From contig CAVTTN010000002.1 in NCBI GenBank assembly GCA_963737655.1, forward strand, positions 288,001-352,000: 64,000 bases of DNA, written 5' to 3'. The notes beneath the pieces were generated by a model, which saw only the letters and a program-made list of their open reading frames with translations, was not told where the DNA came from and did no database searches. The stretch is from an uncultured Planctomycetota bacterium. GTDB lineage: Bacteria > Planctomycetota > Planctomycetia > Isosphaerales > Isosphaeraceae. Shown here in pieces: positions 1 to 6,330 of the stretch (positions within the stretch are counted from its first letter, which is position 1; each line of letters begins with the position of its first letter). The position numbers and the translations under genes are program-made.

Positions 1-191
1 CCGTCTTGTATCAGGCCCCCGACGAGGAAGGATTCGCCGAGTTGAGGGATTGGTTCCGCTCACTCGGCATTGAGGTGCAAGCGGAGAGCATCGAGGATCT
101 CGCGTGCAACACAGATGACCCTGCCCCCGACAAGCTGCACCACGAATTATACGAGCGATACCTGGGCCTGACGCCCGGCGCCTCCCCGTGA
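1..191 (+). CDS. 3' end of a hypothetical cassette-like gene (5' truncated by window edge)
   Basis: Open frame ending GASP-TGA. The TGA lies inside the IS110 end motif CTCCCCGTGAAC. Confidence 0.6.
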   Translation, partial: VLYQAPDEEGFAELRDWFRSLGIEVQAESIEDLACNTDDPAPDKLHHELYERYLGLTPGASP

Positions 192-343
192 ACTCTTCGC
201 GCCGGCGGTTCGGCATCGGTTGATACTATGTGGGCGTGATCATCGATCGGCCCGCATCCCCCCCGGCCCCCGCGACGACGGGGACGGCCCGATCCGGCTC
301 GGCGGGGCTTGCGGCCGGGCGCCCCGCCTCCGACCCGTCGCCC

Positions 344-1696
344 TCACGACGGCGGCGACGGCGGCGACTTCGCCACCAGCTCGTAGCCCAGCGACCTCGC
401 CTTGCGCCGCAGCGAACGCTCCTGCTTCCGCCTCACCTCCGCCTCGTACTCCGCCAGCGACCTCGACACGTACTCCTCGCCGTGCCTGAGCAGCCGGTAC
501 ACCAGCCGCGACAGCTTGTGCGCCGTCGCCGTGATCGCCCCCCGGCCGCCGATCCGGCCCTTGATCCGCCGGTAGAACTGGCCCGTCGCCGTCGCCGTCC
601 GGCCCGCCGCCTGCGCCGCCATCCGCAGCGCCTGACCCACCCGGTTCTTGCCCTTGCGGGGCGTGCGACGCCGCTCGGTCTTGTTGCTCCGGTCGGTCCG
701 CGGGCAGAGGCCCAGCCAGCTGGCGAAGTGCTTCTCGCTCGGGAACCGCCCCACGTCGCCGCCGAGCTCGGCCAGGATCACCGTCGCCGTCGTCGCGTCG
801 ATCCCCTCGATGGCCGTCAGGTCCACGCCCATCGCCCGGGCCAGCTTGGCCGGGGCGTCGAACCGCACGTCGTTGGCCTTGCGGCCGCGACGCCGCGGCC
901 TCGGGGCGACCGGCTCGCCCCCGGAGCGGTCGGGCAGGCGGTCCAGCTCCTCGGCGATCCGGGCGTCGCACTCGTCGACCTGGCGGTGGAGGTAGTGGTA
1001 CAGGTCGGACGCCTGCTTCAGGGCGAACAGGTGCTCGGGCCGCCAGGTGCCCTCCAGGGCCCGGGCGATCTCCGCCTCGTCCCGGGCGCACTGCTCGTGC
1101 CGCAGCGCGGCCAGCTTCGCCGGGTGGCGCTCGCCGGCGAGGATGGCGGCGATGATCGCCGTGCCGGTGACGCCCGTGATGCTGCTGACGACCTCGGTCA
1201 GCTTCACATTCATCTGCTCCAAAGCCTTCTGCATGTGCTGGACGTGGTGCGAGGCGTACCGCACGAGCATCTGCCGCTGCCGCCAGTAGCCGCGCAGGGC
1301 CAGGACGGCCCCGGGCGGGCGGAAGGACGGGCGGAGCAGGCCGCAGGCGTGGAGGCGCTGGAGCCACTGGCAGTCGAGCCGGTCGGTCTTGGGCCGGGCG
1401 CCGCAGTGGCTGGCCTGGCTCGGCTCGATGAGGAAGACCTCGAAGCCGCGCGATTCGAGCAGCTCGAACAGGGGGATCCAGTAGACGCCGGTGGACTCCA
1501 GGACCACCGAGGTGACGCCCTCGGCCCGGAACCAATCGGCCAGGGCGTGGAGGTCGGCCGAGCAGGCGCCGAAGGTGCGGACCCGTCCGGGCCCGACGCA
1601 GGCGACGTGGTTGTCGGAGTGGACGTCGACGGCGGCGGCGTGGGGGTGGACGACCGGCAGGGACGCGTCGGGATCGGGGGGCGTGCGGCGACTCAT
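344..1696 (-). CDS. IS110-family transposase/recombinase (DEDD RuvC-like domain plus Transposase_20 domain)
   Basis: Motifs AAVDVH, VVLESTGVYW and KTDRLDCQWL form the DEDD tetrad. The C-terminal IEGID...RFPSEKHFASWLGLCPRTDRSNK carries the conserved Ser. Confidence 0.95.
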   Translation of the reverse strand: MSRRTPPDPDASLPVVHPHAAAVDVHSDNHVACVGPGRVRTFGACSADLHALADWFRAEGVTSVVLESTGVYWIPLFELLESRGFEVFLIEPSQASHCGARPKTDRLDCQWLQRLHACGLLRPSFRPPGAVLALRGYWRQRQMLVRYASHHVQHMQKALEQMNVKLTEVVSSITGVTGTAIIAAILAGERHPAKLAALRHEQCARDEAEIARALEGTWRPEHLFALKQASDLYHYLHRQVDECDARIAEELDRLPDRSGGEPVAPRPRRRGRKANDVRFDAPAKLARAMGVDLTAIEGIDATTATVILAELGGDVGRFPSEKHFASWLGLCPRTDRSNKTERRRTPRKGKNRVGQALRMAAQAAGRTATATGQFYRRIKGRIGGRGAITATAHKLSRLVYRLLRHGEEYVSRSLAEYEAEVRRKQERSLRRKARSLGYELVAKSPPSPPS

Positions 1697-1725
1697 GGCG
1701 AGGGCTCCGGCGGGTGGGGGGCCAA

Positions 1726-1901
1726 GCCGTCGCGGGCCGAGAGGGGGTCCGGGGACGAGGTAGTCTCCCCGACGGGAACGTCGCGGGGCCGTGTTGACAC
1801 GGCGCCGCGGGTCACCAATGATGGGGCCACGGCCTCTCGGGCCATGCTAACCTGCGGGCGGCGAGCACCAGGGAGATGACGGCCGGGAGGCCCGCGACGG
1901 C
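1726..1901 (-). ncRNA. Putative IS110 bridge RNA (target-binding and donor-binding loops)
   Basis: A perfect 13-bp stem (1726-1738/1889-1901) encloses two UGGUG...CCCGY-guide loops. The guides are AGGUUAG (reverse complement of 1847-1853, matching attC CTAACCT) and CGGGGAG (reverse complement of 1765-1771, matching the IS end CTCCCCG). Confidence 0.75.
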
Positions 1902-1984
1902 GTGCCCCAGCGTATCGCGCCCGGTGGTCGGGGCCACCCCCGGTTCACGTCCGTCGGGGAGCGGTCGGAGACGGCGCGGAGAGT

Positions 1985-2080
1985 TAACCTCGCGCTGCAG
2001 CGGACCCGGCCCGCAGCGGCGACTTCCGCGTTACCGTCGTCTGCCCGGCGGTGCGGGTCCGCTGAGCTTCGTCGTTAGGC
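1985..2080 (+). other. Integron attC site, R'' box disrupted/adjacent to IS110
   Basis: TAAC...GCAGCGGACCC...GGGTCCGCTGAGC...GTTAGGC gives an imperfect palindrome ending in GTTRRRY. It is homologous to the attC at 3352. Confidence 0.85.
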
Positions 2081-2104
2081 GCCGGCTACGGGAAAGGCTG
2101 ATTA

Positions 2105-2299
2105 ATGTCTGGTACGATCCGAACGGCCCTCTCCGCGGTCCTCCTGCTTATGGCGGCGGCCTGCCTCTTCCTCTTTCTCGCAGCCCGGGAGGCACCTCGC
2201 GATAGCTGGCGGGCATTTGGGATTATCTACGGCGTCGTGGGTCTCTCGTGTCTGCTCGGGGCGGGATCGTTGCTCTGGTCGAAGCGTCCTCGCGGATAG
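2105..2299 (+). CDS. Small two-TM membrane protein (cassette gene)
   Basis: 64-aa ORF starting 25 bp after GTTAGGC, with two hydrophobic segments. Confidence 0.6.
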   Translation: MSGTIRTALSAVLLLMAAACLFLFLAAREAPRDSWRAFGIIYGVVGLSCLLGAGSLLWSKRPRG

Positions 2300-2420
2300 C
2301 CCCGCGCACCGGCGGGCCGCGGCGAACTCTTTGAATCATCCGCCTATCCTCGGCGGGCCGGCCCGCCGAGAATGATCACCGGGCGGTCGCGCGGCGTTCG
2401 ATCCAGGGAGGCGTCTGGGG

Positions 2421-2843
2421 ATGAATGACGAAGACACGCGGGTCTTGTTCGAGGAGCCGCAGATCCTGGCGGTGGCTATCTTCGTCGCCCTGCTCGTGGT
2501 CGCGATCCTCATGATCCCCTGCTTCTACATTTCCCGTCGCCGGGAGACGAGGGTCCTGGCGGGCGTCGGTGCCTCCATGTTCGCGATCGCGGCGGTCGTT
2601 TATGGAGACCTGGCGTTCACTCGCTGGGCACTTTACGATGGCGGCCATGGTCGCTCCCCCGGGACGGCCCCGTTAAAGGATTGGCTTGTATTCGCGGCAA
2701 TCAATGCGGTCCTGGCGATCGTGGGCTCAATTCCTGGCGGGGTGCTGGGCTTGGCCATCGGGTTGCTGATCGAGCGAAGGCACCGAAGACGAACCGGAGC
2801 GAACAAGTCGCCGATCGAGCCGTCGGACGCCGCCTCCCCGTGA
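2421..2843 (+). CDS. Hypothetical three-TM membrane protein (cassette gene)
   Basis: GGAGG RBS and hydrophobic helices. It ends DAASP-TGA within the IS110-end-like motif. Confidence 0.7.
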   Translation: MNDEDTRVLFEEPQILAVAIFVALLVVAILMIPCFYISRRRETRVLAGVGASMFAIAAVVYGDLAFTRWALYDGGHGRSPGTAPLKDWLVFAAINAVLAIVGSIPGGVLGLAIGLLIERRHRRRTGANKSPIEPSDAASP

Positions 2844-2956
2844 ACTTTGAACGGGCGCATACTGTCGAGGACTGATGGTATGTTCGAGCGATTCCGTGCG
2901 CGCATGACGTCCCCTGCCCCCCCGCATTCGTCGGGTGTGATCCTCACGGGGGGCGG
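2834..2956. repeat. IS110-end-like fragment type A (MITE-like)
   Basis: CTCCCCGTGAACTTTGAACGGGCGCATACTGTC... is homologous to 3157-3190 and 5672-5755. An inverted copy TCACGGGGGGCGG lies at 2944-2956. Confidence 0.75.
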
Positions 2957-2972
2957 AAAAGGGGACGGAGGT

Positions 2973-3113
2973 GCTCTGTAGAAAACCCTCTTGAGAATGA
3001 GGAAAACGAGTAGGTCCGACTTCAGTCGGGCCTACAAAATAAGACCTTCTTGTAGGCCCGACTGAAGTCGGACCTACTCGTTTCCTTCTCCATCACCGGG
3101 TTTTCTACAAAGC
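2973..3113. repeat. Nested palindrome: GCTCTGTAGAAAACCC arms around an inverted GTAG-REP pair (REPIN-like)
   Basis: GTAGGTCCGACTTCAGTCGGGCCTAC at 3010-3035 and its reverse complement at 3052-3077. Outer arms are 2973-2988 and 3098-3113. Confidence 0.85.
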
Positions 3114-3156
3114 AGGACGGAGGGAATTCTGAGCTTCCCGAGCCACTGAAGGCCGC

Positions 3157-3190
3157 CTCCCCGTGAACTTTACACGGGCGTATACCATCG
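3157..3190. repeat. Truncated IS110-end-like fragment type A
   Basis: GGCCGC|CTCCCCGTGAACTTTACACGGGCGTATAC. Confidence 0.7.
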
Positions 3191-3318
3191 GGCGAGGAAA
3201 AGGGGACGGGGCGAGGAAAAGGGGACGGGCGAGGAAAAGGGGACGGAGCGGAATGCCACGAAGTTAGTGGTAAATCCCGAACTGGAGAAGGGGACGGAGA
3301 ACTGGAGAAGGGGACGGA
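3190..3318 (+). repeat. Short tandem repeats built on AAGGGGACG
   Basis: GGGCGAGGAAAAGGGGACG x3 (3190-3245) and GAACTGGAGAAGGGGACGGA x2 (3279-3318). Confidence 0.85.
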
Positions 3319-3351
3319 GGGAATTACGAGGTTACTGTGTCGTCAAAGATC

Positions 3352-3451
3352 GCCTAACCTCGCGCCGCATCGGACCCCGCACCGTCGCGACCTCCTTCGT
3401 GTTATCATGACTCACTCGGCGGTGCGAGTCCGCTGAGCTTGGTTGTTAGGC
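3352..3451 (+). other. Intact integron attC site
   Basis: GCCTAAC (RYYYAAC) ... GTTAGGC (GTTRRRY) with inner complementary arms CGGACCCCGCACCG and CGGTGCGAGTCCG. Confidence 0.9.
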
Positions 3452-3559
3452 GGCGACAAACACGACCCCCACTTGAGGCTTGAAACGGTGAGCCAATCGG
3501 GCGTCAAGTCTCCCTGAGGGGAACATCGAAACGCGACGACCACTCTTGCGAGGGCTGAT

Positions 3560-4321
3560 ATGGCGAGCACCCAACGCACGATTGTTGAGGCGGAAGTCAA
3601 GAAGCCGTCTCCGGACTGGACCGCGGCGATCGACAACCTGAATGCCCTGACCATGGTCGAGATGCTTCCCACCCTCGCCGGCCTGGCTCCATCGATCCGC
3701 AAAGAGGTGGTGAGCCAGGCCTGGAAGCTGCTCTCCGTCCAGCGCGGCTGGAAGGACTGCTACGAACGCATCGAGTTCGCGGCCGAGGTGGTCACGGAAC
3801 AGAAATTCAAGCAAGACGACACCAGGGCCCCCGCCGGCCAGATTCAGGACGCGACCAACTTCCTGGTCGCCCTCCTGAAACCGGCGAAGAGTCAGGCGGT
3901 GCAGGTCGGCTTCACCTCCGCAGATGACGCAGCGATCGCCGCCCTGCAGGAGATCATCCCGACGACGATAGCCGTCGGGCTAGAATTCGCCGGCAGCATC
4001 TTTTCACGGTCGGGCTCCTTCCGGTTCACCGCGCCGAAGCAGGGCGAGGCGACCGCGTCCGACTCGAACGTCCCCGTGCCGACGGGGACCGGGGCCGTGG
4101 GGTCGTATCACACCCACCCGGAGACAACGCGCAACTCCGAGAACTTTTCGCCACAAGACATGATGATCTGCCGTGGAAATGAGCAAATTCATCTGCCACC
4201 GCGCGTGTTCTACCTCGGCACCCCCAGCGGGAAGATCAAGAGGTTGATCCCGCCGGCCCTGCTCACCGGCCAGGACAAGGAGAATTTCGGCCTGCTTGGC
4301 AAGCTCACGATCCTTCGGTAG
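3560..4321 (+). CDS. DUF4329-type (JAB-like HTHP) domain protein
   Basis: C-terminal half has FTSADDAAIAAL...EFAGSIF...GSYHTHP...NFSPQD, the HxH...S..D pattern of DUF4329/JAB-like domains. Confidence 0.7.
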   Translation: MASTQRTIVEAEVKKPSPDWTAAIDNLNALTMVEMLPTLAGLAPSIRKEVVSQAWKLLSVQRGWKDCYERIEFAAEVVTEQKFKQDDTRAPAGQIQDATNFLVALLKPAKSQAVQVGFTSADDAAIAALQEIIPTTIAVGLEFAGSIFSRSGSFRFTAPKQGEATASDSNVPVPTGTGAVGSYHTHPETTRNSENFSPQDMMICRGNEQIHLPPRVFYLGTPSGKIKRLIPPALLTGQDKENFGLLGKLTILR

Positions 4322-4328
4322 GCGGGTG

Positions 4329-4455
4329 AAAAGGGGACATCCCGGAATGGCATGAAGTCTCCGGCGAGCGAAACAGGGACGAAGTCGGGCCTACTCGTCT
4401 CGATCCTTCGAACGGGTTTTCGACGGGGCACTCCTGACCTCGTTTCGCCCCTTTT
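4329..4455. repeat. Degenerate nested palindrome (AAAAGGGG...CCCCTTTT with half REP)
   Basis: Contains GAAGTCGGGCCTACTCGT and GGGTTTTCGAC remnants of the 2973 and 5005 elements. Confidence 0.6.
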
Positions 4456-4524
4456 GGTATGATCCACGGTTTCTGGGCGGTGCGGGTCCGCGGAGCTTTG
4501 GCCTTCGGAGGCGGGAGGTTCCTC

Positions 4525-4914
4525 GTGGGAATGGAATGGGCGGACTGGCGACCGGACGCTGAGGATCTGGATTTTCGGGGCATTACCTCGCGCTATTCCG
4601 ACATTCCCGGGCTCGTTCTTGACGAGTCTCGCGTGCCGGAGGCCTTCCGCCATCTCCTCCCGCTGGCCAGGCACTGGGCCGTGGGCGATGACCGCGAGCG
4701 GGCCAACCTGATGTGGCTCACGGACACCGAAGAACTCCGACGATTCGTCGATGCCGTCTGGACTCAGTTCGAGGCGATCGATGCCTGGTGCGGATCGCGT
4801 CGCGGCCTCGTCCCGGTCCCCGACGAGGTGGTCCTCTTCGATATGATGCTGGAGGCGGCGGCGGACGCCGTGGCCATCCACGCCGATGAACCGGATGAAG
4901 CCGCCTCCTCGTGA
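4525..4914 (+). CDS. Hypothetical acidic protein (cassette gene)
   Basis: GGAGG RBS. It ends EAASS-TGA within the GCCTCCTCGTGAAC motif. Confidence 0.7.
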   Translation: MGMEWADWRPDAEDLDFRGITSRYSDIPGLVLDESRVPEAFRHLLPLARHWAVGDDRERANLMWLTDTEELRRFVDAVWTQFEAIDAWCGSRRGLVPVPDEVVLFDMMLEAAADAVAIHADEPDEAASS

Positions 4915-4998
4915 ACGAGTCTGGCCCGGGCGGCCGAATCCTCGCGGATCGTCCCTGCGACCGTTACGGCGGGGCTTGACATGGTCGGTTGGGCCGGG
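4905..4998. repeat. IS110-end-like fragment type B
   Basis: CTCCTCGTGAACGAGT...CCCTGCGACC...CGGCGGGGCTTGACATGG is homologous to 6230-6320. It shares CGGCGGGGCTTG with the intact IS end (300-311). Confidence 0.7.
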
Positions 4999-5004
4999 GA
5001 AGGA

Positions 5005-5172
5005 AAGGGGACATTCTTGCTCTGTAGAAAACCCGGTTCGCAGAGGTTTATCGAGTCGGTCCGACTTCGGTCGGGCCTACAAAAAGGCCTTATTTTGCAG
5101 GCCCGACCGAAGTCGGACCGACTCGATTCCTGACTCACACCGGGGTTTTCTACAGAGCAAGAACGTCCCCTT
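5005..5172. repeat. 168-bp three-layer palindrome (AAGGGGAC / GCTCTGTAGAAAACCC / REP pair)
   Basis: Near-perfect inverted arms AAGGGGACATTCTTGCTCTGTAGAAAACCC ... GGGTTTTCTACAGAGCAAGAACGTCCCCTT. Confidence 0.9.
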
Positions 5173-5338
5173 GAAGGGCTTTCAATCTTTCCGACATGAC
5201 GCTTGCATGGCCAACAAAGGAGGGATAATTTCAAAGGGCGTTGACGCGTGTACGGAGCGAGGGCATAAGCCACCATTCTGCTTTTGGTCCGTCCAAGTCT
5301 TGTTCGGCGAAAACGAACCGCAAGCCAGGGGGGACGCC

Positions 5339-5681
5339 ATGCCGGTCAGCATCTGGCTTGAGCCTGTGAACGATAGGCCCTCGCATGATTACACGGGGCC
5401 GAGGGGTAAGATCGAATTACACGACGGCCAAGAAGTCCTGATCGGTAGACACCCTCACTGCGGAGTCGTCCTCTTCAGAGATAAAGTCGCGCAACCACTG
5501 CGTCATCTCGCAGCGTGATGGTGTCGCGGTGATCGAAGATTTAAGATCGAGATATGGCATCTCTGTGAATGGCCTACGCTTCGAGAAAGCGAGCCTCGCC
5601 CCAGGCGACCTGGTCATCATCGGCGATTTTGAATATATCGTGCGAGACATCCACTCCGAACTCGTCGGAGCCTCCTCGTGA
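5339..5681 (+). CDS. FHA domain protein (frameshift near 5488, probably a sequencing error)
   Basis: VLIGRHPHC in the first frame. The second frame reads (S)RNHCVI...IEDLRSRYGISVNG...LAPGDLVIIG and ends GASS-TGA in the IS-end motif. Confidence 0.8.
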
Positions 5682-5755
5682 ACTTTGCACGGGCTTGTAC
5701 TGTCAAGGATTGATGGCGTGTTCGAACGATTTCATGTGTGCGCGTGAGGCCCCTG
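5672..5755. repeat. IS110-end-like fragment type A
   Basis: Aligns over ~85 bp with 2834-2916. Confidence 0.75.
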
Positions 5756-5892
5756 AACCACGCGTGGGTCGGATGAGCTTCGCACGGGTTCGGCGCCGGT
5801 CCGGGGTGGGCGCCGCTCCTCCGCCCTGGCGATCTTACCAGGGCGACGGCTTGAGGCGGAGAATGGGGTCATGAGTGCTCGGAGGGCGGGCC

Positions 5893-6219
5893 GTGTCGGT
5901 CAACTTGCACCTATCGGTTACTGTCCGGGGTTACGACCCCTCGCGTGCCGGGGCGATCGGGCGCGAGGTGCGCGACGTGATCGAGTCGGAGGACCTCGGG
6001 GAGCAGCTTCCCCCGCTGGTCGAGACGTCCGACGGGTTGGGTCGGGTCCTGACCTCCCGCACGGATCGAGACGAGCCGGTCATCCTCAGTCGCGCCTTTC
6101 TGTGGGCACCGGGTTTCCTCCAGGCCCTCCGGCTCGCGGCCGAGCGAGGCAACGGAGGGCCCTGCGAAGTCGAGTTGGACTGCACTGATGCCGACGAGGA
6201 CGACCCGGAAGCCGATTGA
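5893..6219 (+). CDS. Hypothetical protein (cassette-like)
   Basis: GGAGGG RBS, GTG start and an acidic C-terminus. It is followed by a type B fragment. Confidence 0.6.
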   Translation: MSVNLHLSVTVRGYDPSRAGAIGREVRDVIESEDLGEQLPPLVETSDGLGRVLTSRTDRDEPVILSRAFLWAPGFLQALRLAAERGNGGPCEVELDCTDADEDDPEAD

Positions 6220-6229
6220 GGCCGGGTGC

Positions 6230-6330
6230 CCCTTCGTGAACGATTTCGGCCCGGACGCTCGAACCCGCGCGGATCGACCCTGCGACCCTCTCGGCGGGGC
6301 TTGGCATGGCCGGTTAGGCCGTGTTAGCAT
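6230..6330. repeat. IS110-end-like fragment type B with a possible sigma70 promoter
   Basis: Homologous to 4905-4998. TTGGCA (6301-6306) and TG-t-TAGCAT (6322-6330) face the TPR gene. Confidence 0.6.

Follow-up and report, generated by a model that had tools for sequence, protein, structure and literature searches.

In the distal part of an integron-type array of an uncultured planctomycete (family Isosphaeraceae), several small genes end in one and the same short sequence, which raises the question of what assembled these genes and what became of the attC sites behind them. The stretch of DNA analysed, hereafter the window, comprises 64,000 nucleotides of contig CAVTTN010000002.1 (C2:288001-352000; the prefix w denotes window coordinates and C2 those of the contig) from a host genome of 7.63 Mb with 68.7% G+C. 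Its first part, w1-6330, holds seven small open reading frames (ORFs), all on the plus strand, with attC sites or attC remnants behind most of them, and an intact insertion sequence (IS) of the IS110 family. This part is likely to represent the distal, decaying portion of an integron array built by an integrase, the attC sites of which were later invaded, at one base of the R'' box, by an RNA-guided IS of the IS110 family and by a miniature derivative of it lacking the transposase gene.

A fixed insertion point inside attC

The IS at the left edge of the window spans 1,802 bp on the minus strand (w184-1985, with one boundary T ambiguous). It carries a transposase/recombinase gene of 450 amino acids on the same strand (w344-1696), in which DEDD_Tnp_IS110 and Transposase_20 domains are recognized by Pfam and NCBIfam models. 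The protein matches both PF01548 (3.6e-17) and PF02371 (9.9e-18), the domains expected of an IS110-family member, and scores 251.3 bits against the NCBIfam model NF033542, 'IS110 family RNA-guided transposase', for which the cut-off is 140. Its C-terminal part also matches the transposase of IS621 (8wt6, E=5e-11), and the closest plasmid-borne relatives are unnamed IS110-family genes with at most 49.6% identity. The end of an intact IS110 element had been placed at position 182 by the initial annotation, made from the sequence alone, and these matches bear out the presence of such an element. A second IS110-family transposase, 34% identical to that of the window, is represented by a C-terminal fragment on the plus strand shortly before the window (C2:286900-287583); in front of it, a cut attC contains inverted CCGTCCCCTTTTCGGCCCC repeats.

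Copies of the IS elsewhere in the genome define its insertion point. Six are full-length (97-100% amino acid identity, no stops) and two are internally deleted, and all are inside attC. Their left ends follow GCCT in eight of eight cases, with eight distinct upstream flanks, and their right ends all read ...GAGAGTT-AAC (here and below, a hyphen marks the joint), followed by the rest of the attC. In every case (8/8) the copy is thus flanked by GCCT and AAC, one T being shared, and the specific target and lack of a long duplication are those of the IS110 family. The transposase gene is antisense to the cassettes in each of the six full-length copies. In the window, GCCT at w180-183 (plus strand), the 5' part of an R'' box, is parted by the IS from its AAC, and the remainder of this split attC (w1986-2084, plus strand) runs from AAC through GTTAGGC at w2074-2080, complete apart from the split.

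The same site is used by an element of ~380 bp that has no transposase gene. Twenty-eight left junctions of this miniature element were found, 26 of them after GCCT and with 26 distinct flanks, and the 19 copies that were aligned each separate GCCT from AAC in a different attC. Over its transposase-proximal ~250 bp it shares ~74% identity with w1731-1985, the part of the IS that precedes the transposase start. One copy (C2:286269-286648) precedes the window by 1.4 kb, and 23-27 others occupy further places in the arrays of the genome, so that the element has 24-28 copies compared with 6-8 for the IS. Every IS or miniature copy having both junctions sits inside an otherwise complete attC.

The sites themselves were identified with a profile made from this genome's own attC sites and used to scan the whole genome. 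It returned 91 matches, distributed in several arrays, of which nine belong to the array of the window; this array spans C2:283,642 to ~294,330, the window holding its distal portion, and includes five intact attC sites within 4 kb upstream of the window. In the alignment, attC arms show compensatory changes, and the complementary boxes R'' (RYYYAAC) and R' (GTTRRRY) are present. One intact attC remains within the window (w3352-3455, plus strand), with R'' GCCTAAC at w3352-3358 and R' GTTAGGC at w3445-3451; the bottom strand folds with R'' and R' paired (fold of w3349-3458), in agreement with the intact GCCTAAC noted initially at 3352. Among the 91 matches, 37 open with the right junction of an element (GTT-AAC) and are counted as occupied, 32 have an intact RYYYAAC (GCCTAAC in 28 of them), 17 have other variants (GCCTGAC in seven) and five are without the 5' half. 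That attC sites were cut by attC-targeting IS110 elements, as was initially suggested, is borne out by the left junctions and by this occupancy. Besides the intact attC, the window also retains the remainder at w1986-2084 and two attC 3' halves. One of these halves (w4451-4514, plus strand) was detected with the attC profile. A lone weak match to the profile at w63575-63668 (minus strand, E=1.2e-5) is distant from the array.

Insertion at this point has left a recognizable mark on gene ends. The junction GCCTCCYCGTGAAC (GCCT-CC(C/T)CGTGAAC) occurs exactly, on the plus strand, at w180, 2832, 3155, 4903 and 5670, and with two mismatches at w6228. The recurrence had been noticed initially, and it stands against chance: at two mismatches or fewer the window contains 10 matches, and none of 100 dinucleotide-preserving shuffles reaches this number (mean 2.65, maximum 7). 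The 10-mer CYYCGTGAAC has 171 matches in the genome; the arrays, which with 3-kb margins make up 1.7% of it, contain 42 of these, without exception on the array strand. The TGA of the motif closes four ORFs of the window, which end in A-S-P or A-S-S as initially read. These are the ORF of which the 3' end is at w3-191 (plus strand, starting upstream of the window at ~C2:287617; GASP, with the TGA coming from the IS end), the second of two small membrane-like ORFs (2105..2299 and 2421..2843) in the cassette w2105-2843 (plus strand; AASP), an ORF of 127 amino acids from the ATG at 4531 (w4531-4914, plus strand; 4459..4914 at its longest; AASS) and the FHA-domain cassette gene (w5339-5681, plus strand; GASS, ORF 5529..5681). 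The seven co-oriented genes described initially are all present, with the qualification that the FHA gene is frameshifted at ~w5478-5518: its frame 1 stops at w5516-5518 and the FHA match goes on in another frame. The motif marks gene ends at these four ORFs and not at the two other copies. The one at w3155 closes no gene, the non-coding segment around it being repeated together with the upstream flank at C2:1118560 and C2:1119594; the one at w6228 starts 9 nt past the stop of ORF 5875..6219.

More generally, frames of at least 100 codons are closed by the motif TGA at 22 of 40 junctions, compared with 3/40 and 7/40 for the other frames, and by the TAA of R'' at 12 of 29 intact sites (six and six for the other frames). 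Many cassette ORFs thus stop at the TAA of GCCTAAC, which is lost on insertion after GCCT, and the element end C-Y-Y-CGTGAAC supplies an in-frame TGA two codons downstream. The A-S-P and A-S-S gene ends are therefore attributed to replacement of the lost TAA by a TGA two codons on.

Homologous cassettes in other genomes show the state expected before insertion. In the genome G063, a homolog of the FHA gene (74% nucleotide identity over 218 nt) belongs to an intact cassette, with an attC before it, and ends GAC GCC TAA, the TAA lying within an intact GCCTAAC...GTTAGGC attC. Likewise, in an array of the genome G097, a 33%-identical relative of ORF 4531..4914 ends TCC GCC TAA in an intact attC. 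In the comparison proposed by the initial annotation, homologs of both genes thus end in an intact GCCTAAC; a protein search with ORF 2421..2843 gave no relative in 100 genomes of the family.

A candidate guide RNA and the miniature element

The region between the transposase start and the nearer IS end (w1697-1985, minus strand) is non-coding and is a candidate for a bridge-RNA-like gene. It is conserved in the IS, in the ~380-bp element, in a related IS of the same-genus genome G085, in an element of the genome G073 and in three contigs of metagenome-assembled genomes (MAGs) found by means of its core. The G085 transposase is 63-65% identical to that of the window, and its IS also sits inside attC (GCCT-CCCCGTGAAC ... 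GGGAGTT-AAC); the G073 element is a homolog of the ~380-bp element, and G085 has in addition a truncated end abutting a AAAGGGGGAC repeat. On one MAG contig of 2,273 bp (L126, labelled Solirubrobacteraceae), a related IS is directly followed by a miniature-type element with the AA guide described below; the joint, ..GTTCACGGGG-AACTCGCC.., is tandem, with no attC between the elements. Homologs are also present on a MAG contig labelled Acidimicrobiales.

Two short segments of this region correspond to the sequences that a guide would have to read. AGGTTAG (w1847-1853, minus strand) equals the target across the insertion point (GAGGTT-AGGC), is invariant in seven of seven sequences and is placed in a loop by structure prediction; CGGGGAG (w1765-1771, minus strand) equals the IS end plus flank. 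The block around the latter reads GTTCCCGTCG-GG-GAGAC in seven IS copies, of which the end is CCCCGTG, and GTTCCCGTCG-AA-GAGAC in 24 copies of the ~380-bp element in the genome, of which the end is CTTCGTG. This tracking of the element end by two bases of the block is the relation expected of a bridge- or seek-RNA guide. The 160-bp region downstream of the transposase gene has no matches to the target or to the element end. An Rfam scan of w1-7000 (E<=1) returned nothing for the non-coding regions of the IS, and only sub-threshold miRNA- or snoRNA-like matches on palindromic elements. The guide-block pattern is present only in one genus (g1), its 10 matches elsewhere being without the conserved core, and the core pattern, searched in GTDB species genomes, gave seven loci and no further guide state.

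Altogether, the region upstream of the transposase gene would encode an RNA of the bridge or seek type, in which an AGGUUAG loop would read the target across the insertion point and a second segment, CG-GG-GAG, would read the IS end plus flank. We infer RNA guidance from these target- and end-matching segments of the predicted RNA. The ~380-bp element would keep the RNA with CG-AA-GAG, fitting its own end CTTCGTG and not CCCCGTG. By G-T wobble, the GG guide could pair with CC, CT, TC and TT ends, whereas AA fits TT only. As judged from these sequences, the data suggest that the ~380-bp element has a guide of its own and depends on a borrowed recombinase.

The attC variants are consistent with such a guide. 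GAC replaces AAC in none of the 37 occupied sites, and seven unoccupied ones read GCCTGAC, which fits a guide that needs TAAC; GCCTGAC sites may escape the AGGUUAG guide of the element. From these observations it can be proposed, tentatively and as a reading slightly short of an even chance, that the ~380-bp element is a self-guided 'bridge-RNA miniature element'. It would have a full guide-RNA gene, the end-recognizing segment of which co-varied with its own terminus (AA/TT, compared with GG/CC in the master IS), and would be mobilized by a recombinase borrowed in trans. It would outnumber the master IS by ~4:1, filling together with it ~40% of attC sites, and have an end shaped to restore an in-frame stop.

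Origin of the array and of the orphan ends

The genome contains a single intI gene (C2:6777135-6778073; TIGR02249, 474.6 bits, cut-off 265), located 6.5 Mb from the array of the window. No IntI remnant was detected by tblastn near C2:283-284 kb, and the array has no adjacent intI such as a complete integron has: it is now an integrase-less array. Its head (C2:283642-283822, 181 nt) is 91.7% identical to the attI/promoter region between intI and the first cassette. Comparable attI/promoter-like heads precede at least four other arrays, located at 1.67, 1.97, 5.88 and 1.12 Mb, the last of them decayed; including that of the window's array, they are located at C2:283642-283822, 1672754, 1969509, 5884730, 5876219 (fragments), 1121649 (minus strand) and 6778074, with 84-95% identity over 165-182 nt. 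One integrase may thus serve several attI-headed arrays in trans. Moreover, when 100 other genomes of the family were sampled, BLAST detected the same attC type in 61. The attI-like head, the intI of the genome and the wide occurrence of the attC type in the family support ordinary assembly of the cassettes by an integrase at attI. A cassette of ~331 bp with near-identical flanks recurs in tandem and across several arrays (C2:284104-284767, 1673587-1674578, 1972339-1972669 and 6787137-6787467), with an attC spacing of 331-332 bp.

Other junctions of the window lead into short sequences that belong neither to the IS nor to the ~380-bp element and are called here type A and type B ends. A1 (w2836-2950, plus strand) directly follows the GCCT at 2832-2835. 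In its 3' part it can be aligned with the decayed 3' end of an attC, and it borders a AAAGGGGAC-repeat element. A2 (w5674-~5755, plus strand), a type A end of ~85 nt joined to GCCT at 5670-5673, is followed by the second, decayed attC 3' half of the window (~w5755-5795, plus strand; GGGTCGGATGAGCTTCG ... GTTCGGC). The repeated non-coding segment (w3125-3193, plus strand) carries a relic junction made up of GCCT at 3155-3158 and 35 nt of a type A end (w3159-3193), the two copies of the segment at C2:1118560 and C2:1119594 being on the minus strand, and further type A copies are located at C2:1701716 and C2:5893740. B1 (w4907-4996, plus strand) is joined to GCCT at 4903-4906 and abuts a palindromic element at w4996-5175. 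B2 (w6228-6321, plus strand; GCCC-CTTCGTGAAC...) ends in an R'-like GTTAGGC at 6313-6319 and forms the terminal footprint of the array, distal to which core genes begin; like B2, the C2:5893740 copy is at the distal end of its array. Both types have the common 10-nt terminus, joined in the same way to GCCT or, at 6228, to GCCC. By BLAST against the own genome, type A has four copies and type B two, both in the window; the copies of the two types are 67-83% alike. Types A and B were also considered as attC variants and rejected, hairpin z-scores being +0.58 to +1.47 for A2 and both type B ends and -0.66 for A1 on either strand.

These ends are probably old footprints of related elements. Deletions would have taken away the transposase gene together with the other end and, in most cases, one half of the attC, and several of the borders abut the AAAGGGGAC-repeat element. 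This reading draws on a 10-nt terminus held in common and joined at the same target base, on a patchy interior likeness and on analogy with truncated copies of the known IS, of which one of 71 bp (C2:1680648) and one of 407 bp (C2:6791930) were found. When compared with shuffles, the interior likeness to IS ends was reached in 0/300 cases for B2 and 8/300 for B1 (each with the IS of this genome), and in 0/300 for the C2:5893740 copy with the G085 IS. Repeats of the AAAGGGG(G)AC type, which belong to an unrelated miniature family widely scattered through these arrays, border the 71-bp IS copy, A1, B1 and a copy in G085. The initial annotation counted at least three types of IS110 end; that types A and B represent further IS types is weakly supported, as no parent IS was found in the sequences searched and the interior likeness is weak.

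In the sequence of events favoured here, the array would have been assembled at attI by the integrase of the genome, the gene for which is now absent beside the array. Its attC sites would later have been invaded by the IS and the miniature derivative, both into GCCT-AAC with one T shared and both antisense to the cassettes. It was initially offered as an alternative that bridge recombination built the array itself, the IS110 recombinase joining attC-flanked genes to donor ends without any integrase. Several successive gene ends of the window do carry an IS-type end and no attC, and no intI lies beside the array. However, the array retains the attI/promoter-like head matching the region at the true intI, five intact attC sites lie just upstream and one in the window, in addition to remainders and halves, and all IS and miniature copies with both junctions are within complete attC sites. 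Homologous cassettes elsewhere have an intact GCCTAAC, the attC type is present in most family genomes sampled, and the genome offers no donor element that matches these ends. Integrase-independent assembly is thus considered extremely improbable. A comparably small chance is given to the motif being a stop or terminator module selected by the host at cassette ends, instead of a scar of mobile elements. It does provide an in-frame stop for long frames at 22 of 40 junctions, but its copies invariably form the opening 10 nt of a longer repeat (IS, miniature element, type A or type B), a TAA stop is already given by intact attC, and no stable hairpin was found by folding.

It could also be hypothesized that types A and B are short elements in their own right, either tiny non-autonomous units or a variant recombination site, sharing just the terminal 10 nt for recognition; this is regarded as unlikely. 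The missing parent IS, the weak interior likeness to IS ends and a 13-nt terminal inverted pairing in A1 speak for such units, as do three type A copies that share one composite, two of them homologous past the attC remnant, as for the spread of a whole unit. However, the ends fold unlike attC (z of +0.6 to +1.5, with -0.66 for A1), and no remainder of a target attC (AAC...) lies behind them. Moreover, four type A and two type B copies at 67-83% likeness indicate old and not proliferating sequences, and the guide states GG and AA fail to match the CT of CCTCGTG exactly.

Several results weigh against the reading of integrase assembly followed by RNA-guided invasion, or against its extension to types A and B. 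The consensus fold of the upstream region (seven sequences) has two domains in which 11 of 50 pairs show a compensatory change, and its covariation term is +0.82, about zero. Guide and end co-vary in two states only (GG/CC and AA/TT), each in 2-3 related genomes, representing few independent events. A look-up of the stretch in sequencing runs gave no run with more than 0.06 of its sampled words and listed no RNA run containing it. No full-length parent of type A or type B was found in the own genome, in three same-genus genomes, in the 100 family genomes (BLAST) or in metagenome contigs, so that the full IS110 elements with these ends for which the initial annotation proposed to search did not turn up. 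Beyond the 14-nt junction, the likeness of types A and B to IS ends is patchy, most pairs being at chance level. Finally, A1, A2 and C2:1701716 align through the decayed attC 3' half, with A2 and C2:1701716 homologous for ~35 nt further; this shared composite points to a single origin followed by spread along an unexplained route, for which independent insertion and deletion are insufficient.

BLAST of w2300-6400 against the 100 family genomes gave no type A or type B match, returning mostly attC, GAAAAGGGGACGG repeats and one FHA gene. A motif search in five related genomes recovered related IS ends, the miniature homolog and truncated ends, with no type A or type B. The exact type A pattern had 16 matches in metagenome contigs, which are chance-like, none after GCCT and none near an IS110 transposase.

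The rest of the window part consists of two cassette ORFs with their own stops and of repeats. An ORF with a DUF4329 domain (w3560-4321, plus strand), closed by its own TAG, is followed by repeat fragments and by the attC 3' half at w4451-4514. The last cassette ORF (w5875-6219, plus strand; 114 amino acids) has its own TGA. A palindromic miniature element with AAGGGGAC-type terminal repeats lies at w2950-3125, with further copies at w4996-5175 and C2:4335379-4335522; it measures ~170 bp, and its 30-nt terminal repeats are 97% complementary. Tandem GAAAAGGGGACGG / GAGAAGGGGACGGA repeats occupy w3189-3320 (plus strand), and other sites of these repeat families, either GAAAAGGGGACGG(AG) repeats or the palindromic element, are found at w4326-4420 and C2:286703-286890. 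AAAGGGGAC has 64+75 occurrences in the genome and is also present in several other genomes of the family; most borders left by deletions in the truncated IS ends and in attC sites carry a copy of it.

Relation to known systems and consequences

Invasion of cassette arrays by attC-targeting IS elements is not new in itself: Tetu and Holmes are said to have described it in 2008, together with degenerate footprints at the termini of Pseudomonas arrays, the place taken here by B2 and the C2:5893740 copy. A cluster of attC sites lacking an integron integrase is termed CALIN. Such a cluster resembles the array of the window in having attC sites and no adjacent intI, whereas the array of the window retains an attI/promoter-like head. 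In the IS1111-attC group, sub-terminal inverted repeats are 11-13 bp long and have extensions of 7 bp and 3 bp. In the IS of the window, a sub-terminal inverted repeat (AACTCTTCGCGCC / AACTCTCCGCGCC) matches at 12 of 13 positions, with a 7-nt extension at the transposase-distal end only. By hand count, ~7-8 of 13 positions of the repeat are kept in the G085 IS and in the miniature element, so that it seems not to be conserved in them.

The IS1111-attC group (ISPa21, ISPst6, ISKpn4, ISPa25) provides the closest comparison in behaviour. Like the IS of the window, its members have a DEDD transposase of the IS110 superfamily and occur in multiple copies in chromosomal arrays. IS1111-family elements enter attC sites close to their 5' end and in antisense orientation relative to the cassettes (PMC3001079), and a fixed site and orientation of this kind are found here as well. 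ISKpn4 and ISPst6 are described as targeting one end of attC via a seekRNA encoded downstream of the transposase gene (PMC11187229). The target is thus set in that group by an element-encoded RNA, whereas such guidance is predicted here. The non-coding region also differs in position: it lies downstream of the gene for the transposase in IS1111 and upstream in the IS of the window, which is the IS110-type layout and not that of IS1111. The host is here a planctomycete. The IS of the window thus behaves as IS1111-attC elements do, and membership of that group is not established. The initial statement that no array of this architecture had been described does not stand, since antisense, attC-targeting IS1111 elements are reported in two sources (PMC3001079; PMC11187229).

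In layout, the IS is closer to IS621 and IS110, for which a bridge RNA with a two-loop architecture has been described (PMC12859917). In both cases a non-coding region upstream of the recombinase gene contains separate target- and end-matching segments, and the C-terminal domain of the transposase is alike (8wt6, E=5e-11; NF033542). However, IS621 and IS110 use a plain chromosomal target, whereas the target here is a motif of a folded site (attC R''). Their core is a CT dinucleotide on both sides, compared with one T here (CT in the target, TT at the other junction), and the RNA proposed here is without an Rfam match and has a predicted structure only.

Two further systems share traits with the invaders described here. 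Group IIC-attC introns likewise enter attC close to its 5' end and opposite in orientation to the cassettes (PMC3001079); they are retroelements, whereas the invaders here are DNA transposons. MITEPpu9, a derivative of ISPpu9 of Pseudomonas putida published in 2025, lacks the transposase gene, has IS110-family ends and has been proposed to be mobilized in trans (PMC12288879). It is similar to the ~380-bp element in being short and transposase-less with IS110-family ends. However, it carries the Ssr9 small RNA and not a bridge RNA, whereas the ~380-bp element keeps the whole guide-bearing region with a re-coded guide.

Site-specific invasion of attC antisense to the cassettes was thus already known for IS1111-family elements. 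What is new here is the guide-bearing region upstream of the transposase gene, the miniature element keeping the predicted RNA with a co-varied guide, and the planctomycete host. In the main texts of the literature searched, neither a miniature IS110 element with a guide of its own nor the planctomycete system was found to be described.

For this genome, the consequence is that ~40% of the attC sites are split by an element that is presumably RNA-guided. Distal cassettes could become fixed behind decayed footprints, which should block integrase-mediated excision and freeze the array. At the same time, the IS provides an example from nature in which attC is targeted by an element whose guide is arranged as in IS110, upstream of the transposase gene. 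In practice, the GCCT-CYYCGTGAAC junction flags the 3' ends of cassettes at which attC finders will fail. Finally, a non-autonomous derivative that apparently has its own re-coded guide makes the co-evolution of guide and element end directly testable.

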